Shown: positions 33,560 to 33,700, counted from the stretch's first letter. The stretch is 64,000 nucleotides of DNA from Patescibacteria group bacterium (GCA_041645165.1 JBAZQN010000006.1:4933-68932); one strand, 5' to 3'. Numbers and translations: made by a program. Notes: generated from the letters alone by a model not told the origin.

Positions 33560-33700
33560 TTTAAAAATCAAAAATCAAATATTAAAATGTTGGTATTCCG
33601 TCCCGCAATTGCGGGACTCCATAATTTTGCATTTTGAGATTTGTCCCGCACTTTATTATTAAACTCAGTGGCATGCGGGATCCCGCCTCTGCGGTGACAT
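33560..33700. repeat. family D terminator-like hairpin element (copy D1) plus GCGGGATCCCGCC motif (family H)
   Basis: aaaaatcaaaaatcaaatattaaaatgttggtattccGTCCCGCaattGCGGGACtccataattttgcattttg, then ggcatGCGGGATCCCGCctctgcggtga. Confidence 0.6.

Follow-up and report, generated by a model that had tools for sequence, protein, structure and literature searches.

A palindromic repeat family between ribosomal protein genes of an Uhrbacteria-like Patescibacteria bacterium as a probable stop-start junction insertion element

ERIC/IRU and Correia (NEMIS/CREE) elements of Proteobacteria are imperfect palindromes of 100-150 bp without an ORF, which are present in many copies and in operon spacers, are co-transcribed, form long hairpins, are polymorphic between strains and influence the mRNA in an orientation-dependent manner. 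Correia transcripts are cut by RNase III, a type of processing also known from T7 early mRNA. REP/BIME/REPIN elements are mobilised by RAYT transposases and have roles as stabilisers of mRNA 3' ends, and Rickettsia palindromic elements (RPEs) are inserted in frame within genes. Patescibacteria are regarded as extremely streamlined. For Beggiatoaceae, cyanobacteria and Bacteroidetes, direct repeats of the heptamer TAACTGA were reported in front of start codons (PMC4679880), and CPR rRNA genes carry intervening sequences, including non-intron ones encoding GIY-YIG proteins (PMC11270868). Our literature search for elements of this kind in Patescibacteria/CPR returned no description.

We analysed a 64-kb stretch of DNA, called the window here, from an Uhrbacteria-like member of the Patescibacteria, the nearest named relative being Candidatus Uhrbacteria RIFCSPHIGHO2_12_FULL_54_23 (L14 87% identical). 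Between 27 and 48 kb, its minus strand encodes the str/S10/spc ribosomal protein operon in the order rpsL, rpsG, fusA, tuf, rpsJ ... rplO, secY, adk, map; no L30 gene is present between rpsE and rplO (30977-31182), as expected for CPR. Over 80 Patescibacteria loci the median spacer of this operon is typically 5-20 nt, compared to 135 nt in the window; L002, the closest genome, has 125 nt. The most conserved and highly expressed operon of Patescibacteria here carries spacers lengthened about ten-fold by several palindromic families placed exactly between stop and start. The unrelated lineages L049, L051, L060 and L043 have independently undergone a similar expansion (median 106-138 nt), and their palindromes show the same design with other arm units in tandem of 7-11 nt. 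Arm units of these lineages include ACACAGAT, GCGAATTA, TTAAGATT, GCGAAT and TACGAAA. Junction palindromes with tandem-repeat arms appear to be recurrent in the phylum.

One of the families in the window, family D, behaves like bacterial MITEs of the ERIC/Correia type and has features in common with REP elements and RPEs. It is no REP element and no terminator, and it belongs neither to an Rfam family nor to the TIGR/box C/D units. It agrees with MITEs in being small, in its inverted ends, in its many copies and in being polymorphic for insertion; it differs from ERIC/Correia elements in having arms built of heptamers with regular mismatches, a separate covarying GC core and an exact span from stop to start, in its host belonging to the Patescibacteria, and in that neither a TA duplication, an IHF site nor a transposase partner was found. 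We consider D to be probably a non-coding foldback element, similar to MITEs and ERIC, inserting at stop-start junctions in an Uhrbacteria-like lineage of Patescibacteria.

The full D unit is a palindrome of 100-115 bp and contains no conserved ORF, placing it within the size of MITEs (below about 300 bp). A small ORF starting at an internal ATG-GAG was considered and dropped, its length and stop position varying among the copies. Read in operon sense, the left part comprises the stop codon, TAAT(G/C)CAAAAT, two to four more A-rich heptamers CAAAANN and AAAATTATGGAG; the core is formed by a GC stem of 6-8 bp with a loop of 3-6 nt and by CG(G/T)AAT(A/T)CC; and the right part consists of three to four T-rich heptamers NNTTTTG and a tail, e.g. 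ATTACACTAAGGT, preceding the next ATG. The left end, TAAT(G/C/T)CAAAAT, usually contains the upstream stop codon, and the right end ...TTTTGCATTACACTAAGGT abuts the ATG. Terminal inverted repeats (TAATGCAAAAT ... ATTTTGCATTA) are present in addition to the inverted heptamer arms, which are period-7 tandem repeats as detected by TRF. The TAACTGA heptamers, in contrast, are direct repeats only, having neither an inverted arm nor a hairpin core nor evidence for insertion polymorphism (PMC4679880).

Four full D copies lie on the minus strand of the window, which in addition holds two partial ones. The first full copy, W1 (33546-33712, minus; covariance model score 79.9 bits), lies in the rpsZ>rpsH junction. 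Its left end in operon sense is ATGCAAAATG, followed by a nested hairpin (~33651-33699), the A-arm, AAAATTATGGAG, the hairpin at 33600-33617, CGGAATACCAAC and the T-arm, the tail CACATTAAGGT of which abuts the rpsH ATG (33545). The interval 33560-33700, listed earlier among the copies, is indeed a D copy and also holds this second, unrelated hairpin nested in the A-arm. W2 (35597-35700, minus; 94.8 bits, fold z -4.3) lies at rpsQ>rplN and takes up precisely the space between the TGA stop of rpsQ (35701-35703) and the rplN ATG (35596), with the hairpin GCCCCGC-TATC-GCGGGGC at 35645-35662. W3 (36794-36895, minus; 80.3 bits) is located at rpsC>rplP, its A-arm and hairpin (36830-36846, GTGCCGC-CCT-GCGGCAC) forming part of the rpsC ORF at its 3' end; rpsC terminates at the TAA (36826-36828) contained in the CGTAAT of the element, the rpsC C-terminus departs from the L110 orthologue exactly at the start of W3, and the short T-arm reaches the rplP ATG (36793). 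W4 (47090-47200, minus; 100.1 bits) lies at rpsL>rpsG, where it takes up all of the space between the stop codon of rpsL (47201-47203) and the ATG of rpsG (47089), has its hairpin at 47139-47156 and folds as RNA with -36.3 kcal/mol (z -6.1).

In the partial copy W5 (48595-48687, no strand assigned) the hairpin (48595-48611) is accompanied by an altered 5' flank, CTCCGCAATTTTA, and by a single heptamer arm (TTTAGAA repeated 4.4 times), which ends at the rpmB ATG (48688, plus strand); the 3' flank CGGAATACC and the second arm are missing. It is located in the divergent spacer between rpmB (48688-48873, plus) and the gene of an M50 peptidase, an arrangement also kept in L002. The rpmB gene (L28, 61 aa, PF00830) falls below the 80-aa limit of the ORF list and is divergent from the M50 peptidase gene and the str operon. 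A half copy (38604-38650, minus), consisting of the A-arm and AAAATTATGGAG, is found at the rplB>rpsS junction, where TATG and a family A element (38493-38600) follow without a gap; L110 has this chimera too, its arm being one unit shorter. Four of the five copies listed in the initial annotation are accordingly full elements, the fifth (48585-48635) is merely partial, and this half copy had been overlooked.

A covariance model of family D built on 22 copies recovers the four full window copies with 80-100 bits (E 1e-16 to 1e-21) on the minus strand only, and its search of the 64-kb window gave no comparable match beyond these. The proposal that the copies form one repeat family rather than a set of independent terminators is borne out, and the genes named as lying downstream, rpsH, rplN, rplP and rpsG, are those we find. 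The flank conservation claimed earlier is seen for CTCCATAATTTTG, which has five exact matches on the plus strand (33617, 35662, 36846, 38604, 47156); the flank GTTGGTATTCCG is exact in two copies only (33589, 35634), being replaced by GATGGTATTACG at 47128 and by the equivalent GGAATTACG at 36822. The pattern GTCCCGC-N4-GCGGGAC with up to two mismatches has eight matches versus 0.17 expected, three of which belong to family D (33600, 35645, 47139); the hairpin at 36830-36846 is missed because its loop has 3 nt.

Folded as single strands, D units adopt the shape of a single long rod (z -2.2 to -6.1 versus shuffles), in agreement with the earlier view of the whole unit as a palindrome of about 100 bp. 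The rod comprises about 35-40 imperfect base pairs in total, organised in blocks of 4-7 A-U/G-C pairs with regular 2x2 internal loops between them. Towards the apex these are followed by a UGG/CCA helix, then by an internal loop that is asymmetric (A vs GGAAUA), and finally by the apical GC hairpin. Stop and start lie 4 and 4 nt from the base of the rod in W4 and 0 and 5 nt in W2. Compensatory changes in the stem, named beforehand as a check, were found in three of the eight apical pairs (UA/AU/CG, CG/GC/UA, CG/AU), with 97.5% of the cells in the 22-copy alignment being paired and a covariation score above 500 of 500 shuffles and above all slid controls. The arms of the 22 copies consist of nearly invariant A-U pairs and give no covariation signal, one pair only being changed on both sides. 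The sense strand folds more stably than its reverse complement in 13 of 23 copies (Wilcoxon p=0.94), and G-U pairs number 39 versus 35 on the two strands, so that D pairing is maintained, yet has no specific tie to the sense RNA.

The short GC-rich hairpin with conserved flanking bases, its location between operon genes and its stem covariation are reminiscent of REP elements. D differs from these by the flanks UAUGGAG/CGKAAUWCC, by A/T heptamer arms and by a single central hairpin within long A/T arms in place of an inverted doublet; the GTAG-type 5' tetranucleotide is absent, and D is no REP/REPIN palindrome of 20-40 nt. Several other assignments were dropped. The conserved internal loop fits none of the sequences of K-turn, loop E, tetraloop-receptor or box C/D motifs. 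A TIGR array or box C/D unit was rejected as well, a CUGA (box D) partner being absent, AUGAUGG as the match to box C (RUGAUGA) occurring in two L002 variants only, and D units being single, not arrayed, with no Tas-like (Nop-domain) neighbour. Rfam searches at gathering and permissive thresholds returned only tRNAs at gathering and nothing relevant at E<=5 in 28-49 kb.

The layout of an A-rich arm, a GC hairpin and a T-rich arm looks like a bidirectional intrinsic terminator, and the initial annotation read it as a hairpin followed by a U-rich run, potentially acting as a terminator or attenuator within the operon. A scan with consensus terminator criteria indeed passes the partial copy at 48595-48611, and this is the only D copy it flags; W1-W4 fail the scan. 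The U-tract of an intrinsic terminator directly follows the stem (0-2 nt), and the T-run of D begins 12 conserved nt (CGGAAUACCAAC) past it. This spacer sets D apart from known bidirectional terminators, with which it shares the GC hairpin between A-rich and T-rich tracts, as do its location inside operons and its partial overlap with ORFs. Terminator-like sites in 30-49 kb (28) do not exceed those in shuffles (23.6 +/- 4.4), and a promoter consensus scan showed no enrichment over shuffles either, the T-arms being weak sigma-70-like matches. All full window copies separate co-directional, normally coupled genes instead of closing a transcription unit; these genes are needed in equal amounts and are tightly coupled in relatives, and a convergent gene end was found at 0 of the 19 D junctions examined. 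At four junctions (rpsC in the window and L002, rplV in L110, rpsQ in L120, rpsQ in L098/L129) the upstream ORF reads through the A-arm and the hairpin and ends at the TAA of CGTAAT, having lost its own gene 3' end and gained a tail such as ..KSQNYGVPQGGT*. Taking into account also that D shifts its position or is absent in relatives, we infer that D does not act as an intrinsic terminator, and an attenuating or terminating role within the operon is very unlikely. The element-encoded tails ..KSQNYGVPQGGT* of S3, L22 and S17 are a likeness to RPEs, which are likewise translated within ORFs; unlike RPEs, D replaces gene 3' ends only and is mostly intergenic.

Family D is narrowly distributed. 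At >=70 bits, 0 members were found in 79 loci of other Patescibacteria species (1.3 Mb), L025 carries one distant D-like element, and viral contigs gave a single chance match and no member. A metagenome scan yielded 45 loci, of which about 27 are true members corresponding to about 16 non-redundant ones; about 19 of the 45 were discarded as chance matches without hairpin or arms. D is present in four full copies in the window, four in L002 and three in L098. It was seen upstream of rpsH, rplN, rplP, rpsG, rpsC, rplD, rplF, rplR, rpsR, infC and nusG, as well as upstream of glmS, scpB, pilD and other genes. Its multiple copies are dispersed over 17 different junctions, as is usual for MITEs. D occurs in both orientations with a strong bias: 17 distinct junctions hold it in sense and two in antisense relative to the flanking genes (two-sided binomial about 7e-4), and 11 of the 17 sense junctions precede ribosomal protein genes, infC or nusG. 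The two antisense copies (L088, L112), for which the flanking genes were confirmed, are intact with 81-91 bits.

Relatives keeping junctions of 4-6 nt have no D. In the compact relatives L005, L009, L011, L016, L033, L036, L057 and L132 no Shine-Dalgarno sequence precedes the ribosomal protein genes, and the junctions are composed of TAA, 2-5 nt and ATG, almost always with T at -1, or of ATGA overlaps; junctions of the type TAA-n(2-5)-T-ATG without Shine-Dalgarno imply coupling by termination-reinitiation. L132 (L14 81% identical) has 'TAA tcat ATG' at rpsQ>rplN, 'TAA tttt ATG' at rpsZ>rpsH and 'TAA acagcc ATG' at rpsC>rplP, three junctions holding about 100 nt of D in the window.

Comparison of close relatives reveals D being copied between junctions and genomes and being gained, lost and swapped with other repeat families. 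The window and L002 both carry D at rpsL>rpsG, at rpsC>rplP and upstream of the M50 peptidase gene, and they differ at rpsQ>rplN, rpsZ>rpsH and rplV>rpsC. In L110, whose genes have 86-91% nucleotide identity to those of the window, D occupies rplV>rpsC and another palindrome occupies rpsC>rplP, the window showing the opposite; the L110 core TGCCGC-AGG-GCGGCA-CGTAATTCC is identical to that of W3 on the other side of rpsC. The Uhrbacteria relative L098/L129 carries D at rplC>rplD, rpsQ>rplN and rpsH>rplF. W1 and a copy in L091 share a composite of 148 nt, D plus the nested hairpin, located before rpsH in one case and before an epimerase gene in the other. Presence/absence polymorphism at orthologous sites is thus seen for the window versus L002, L110, L129 and L132, as for MITEs. 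Similarity between D copies of different loci starts at the stop-proximal TAAT..CAAAAT and stops at the ATG. Half copies, nested insertions and fusions with family A are observed as well, and orthologues differ in how many arm units they have. One copy (L096) is interrupted by an IS4-like element whose ends are unrelated to D.

The edges of D junctions often show TATG or AATG at the left and TATG at the right, and TAA is found at both ends (TAA|TGCAAAAT ... CAC TAA GGT ATG). No unambiguous target-site duplication was identified in the D junctions compared with relatives and no clean filled/empty pair is available: the junctions of close relatives are filled by other families and the compact state is known from the distant L132 only. 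A cognate transposase, an autonomous element or an ORF-bearing D was found neither in the window nor in the relatives' loci examined. Two mobility genes only are present in the window, one being a GIY-YIG ORF carried by a family B element and the other encoding a large serine recombinase, with no RAYT (Y1 transposase) among the window ORFs scanned. A link of D to GIY-YIG genes was rejected, the GIY-YIG ORFs in L124 and L048 not adjoining D.

According to the insertion-element model, D would be co-transcribed with the operon. By keeping a stop at its left and a start at its right end, it may be tolerated in essential, coupled operons devoid of Shine-Dalgarno sequences, pairing of the arms to a rod presumably returning stop and start to within a few nucleotides of each other. 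The covarying GC hairpin and the asymmetric flanks UAUGGAG/CGKAAUWCC would be the most likely module recognised by a putative copying enzyme. The 5' and 3' ends of each of the families A, B, C and D pair, and insertions may be tolerated because such paired ends bring stop and start together; this could also be the elements' role. The 17:2 sense bias, the missing transposase and target duplication and the conservation described below count against mobility. In addition, nearly every junction of the operon holds a palindrome, so a structured spacer could now be required.

Orthologous D copies of the window and L002 are 80% identical (also 80% for W4 and its L002 orthologue), with >90% in the T-arm and 3' flank, compared to 46% at 4-fold sites of the flanking genes. 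The D consensus is therefore under selection, which may act on the spread of the element itself or on some function in the host, and judged from sequence, oriented junction-specific insertion with self-propagation and a generic RNA role in the host would explain this selection equally well. D might accordingly be a generic intercistronic RNA module serving the host as an RNase III-type processing site, as a 3' stabiliser or as a device holding stop and start adjacent; we regard this as possible, if rather unlikely. In the last variant termination-reinitiation would work across a spacer of 100 nt, with an opened U-rich arm as landing site. The 17:2 sense bias with its excess before translation genes, the conservation far over synonymous sites, the stem covarying with free loops, the rod bases 0-5 nt from stop and start, the TAAnnT-ATG junctions of relatives lacking Shine-Dalgarno sequences, and the frequent presence of another palindrome at a D-less junction of a close relative are all consistent with such a module. 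It fits less well that the position of D is not conserved among close relatives, that some junctions filled in the window are empty in L110 and that compact relatives live without D. Furthermore, antisense copies are intact, the sense strand has no advantage in folding or G-U pairs, and mismatched arm dinucleotides are not repaired by covariation, with one double-changed pair in the arm helices.

The equal folding of both strands, and the conservation of the 5-mers but not of pairing by the dinucleotides between them, would also be expected for a DNA-level array in which phased CAAAA/TTTTG inverted heptamers bind a putative nucleoid, replication or regulatory protein and the hairpin core would serve as a putative cruciform or single-stranded DNA site. 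Other lineages show the same architecture with other units (ACACAGAT, GCGAAT, TACGAAA), which such an array could accommodate. The 7-nt phasing, however, does not match the helical repeat, the gene-sense bias is unexpected for a symmetric DNA site and no candidate protein was identified, making a binding array improbable. D located upstream of ribosomal protein genes with a conserved asymmetric internal loop could further suggest gene-specific autoregulatory operators that mimic rRNA binding sites. One and the same element is, however, placed before many unlike genes and moves between junctions, and it has no match to an Rfam leader; the distribution of D effectively refutes such operators, and we assign them hardly any probability.

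The insertion-element model has a precedent in the same genome in family B, which we count in its favour since it inserts exactly at start codons. Family B is a structured repeat of ~239 nt on the minus strand (36136-36372, 34977-35215, 32172-32407, 10579-10816) with pairing ends CCCCGCAATACAACATCC ... GGATGTTGATATACGGGG, each copy being inserted precisely at a start codon and flanked by ATG left and right. L110 has empty sites at rplP>rpmC ('TAG cat ATG') and rplN>rplX, '..TAG cat ATG aaaatg' corresponding to '..TAG cgt ATG [239 nt] ATG aaaatg' in the window; the family B insertion site is thereby proven, and a clear target duplication (ATG) is seen for this family only. The open 3' end of family B produces false N-terminal extensions LALDVDI(R/L)GM in the ORF calls of rplR and rplX. 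An element with family B terminal repeats at 18413-18728 (plus) contains a GIY-YIG ORF of 101 aa (18413-18718; Pfam PF01541, E=3e-17) and occupies the dnaB (18729-20129) start codon, a heptamer-arm palindrome (18291-18407) lying ahead of it; the element looks like the autonomous form of family B.

Family A, a repeat of ~100 nt with the structure TATG-CCCGCCTAAGTTTTGCGGGC ... GCAAAATTTAGGCGGG-T-ATG, lies directly before rpsZ, rplE, rplV, rpsS and fusA (33901-34008, 34555-34662, 38063-38170, 38493-38600, 45946-46161; L002 10820-11115). It creates a decoy ORF of three codons (ATG CCC GCC TAA), and one window copy has a large internal insertion. In L002 the family A element at rplB>rpsS contains an 88-aa GIY-YIG ORF (10843-11106; PF01541, E=5.6e-15). 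The GIY-YIG forms of A and B and the short insertions in highly expressed translation genes of the same superphylum are points of resemblance to the CPR rRNA insertions; those are located inside rRNA genes (PMC11270868), whereas D lies between protein-coding genes and no ORF-bearing form of it was found.

Family C comprises intergenic palindromes at 18291-18407, 20499-20612, 22830-22896, 25403-25508, 28850-28880, 30441-30534, 31025-31135, 31698-31819, 33000-33118, 37532-37674, 39486-39611, 40078-40112 and 61139-61280, spread over the whole window beyond the ribosomal protein operon. Its arms are A-rich/T-rich tandem heptamers AAATCCN/NGGATTT, some like plant telomere repeats, and its ends are often (T)TATGAAATCC ... 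GGATTTCATAA-nGT-ATG. A further hairpin family, CACCGC-n4-GGCGGGATCCCGC ... GCGGGAC (~33651-33699, ~40165-40225, 9587-9624, the rplO>secY spacer of L002, and L091), occurs as a nested insert in arms belonging to other elements, one of them the A-arm of W1. A family of ~10-nt units, inverted TCTGCGTATA / AATAACGCAG, is present in the 486-nt fusA>tuf spacer (~43400-43505) and, in L002, in the rpsQ>rplN spacer where the window has W2. As a separate observation, the rpsJ>rplC spacer (41595-41754, minus; L002 7460-7620) holds a GC-rich structure of ~160 nt that is about 85% conserved between the window and L002 in spite of saturated synonymous sites. Rfam gave no match for this structure, which could be a true regulatory leader.

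The D core resembles the left end of family A (TATG-CCCGC..GCGGGCAGGAAC vs TATGGAGTCCCGC..GCGGGACGGAAT). We speculate, as a rather doubtful extension, that A-D constitute an undescribed 'gene-junction' class of mobile elements. The homing site of its members would be the stop-start junction or the start codon (T-ATG) in coupled operons devoid of Shine-Dalgarno sequences, and their mobilisation in trans would depend on the small GIY-YIG nucleases of full-length A and B forms. Terminal pairing would fold the insert out, allowing reinitiation across the hairpin base as a bacterial analogue of ribosome shunting, and D would be a non-autonomous member with a GC hairpin derived from the family A left end. 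The whole set of elements targeting start codons and junctions is a more interesting lead than D alone. If mobile, the elements indicate that selfish DNA can enter essential coupled operons without breaking them and provide a handle on translation reinitiation in organisms without Shine-Dalgarno sequences; if functional, they represent a generic intercistronic RNA module. In addition, junction elements result in spurious N- or C-terminal extensions in the calls of rplR, rplX, rpsC, rplV and rpsQ, and are probably a cause of breaks or duplications in MAG assemblies.

In the gene calls of L128 (contig of GCA_001791245.1) rplV occurs twice and rpsZ-rpsH twice in tandem, with a DDE transposase between fusA and tuf; the doublings may be assembly duplications arising from repeated junction elements. 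Outside the operon, the window encodes the large serine recombinase (Resolvase, Recombinase and Zn ribbon, 531 aa; 56573-58887, plus), which is preceded by a 240-aa ORF without Pfam match and overlaps the end of a tRNA-Pro gene (58804-58877, minus), a region that may be the edge of an integrated element.
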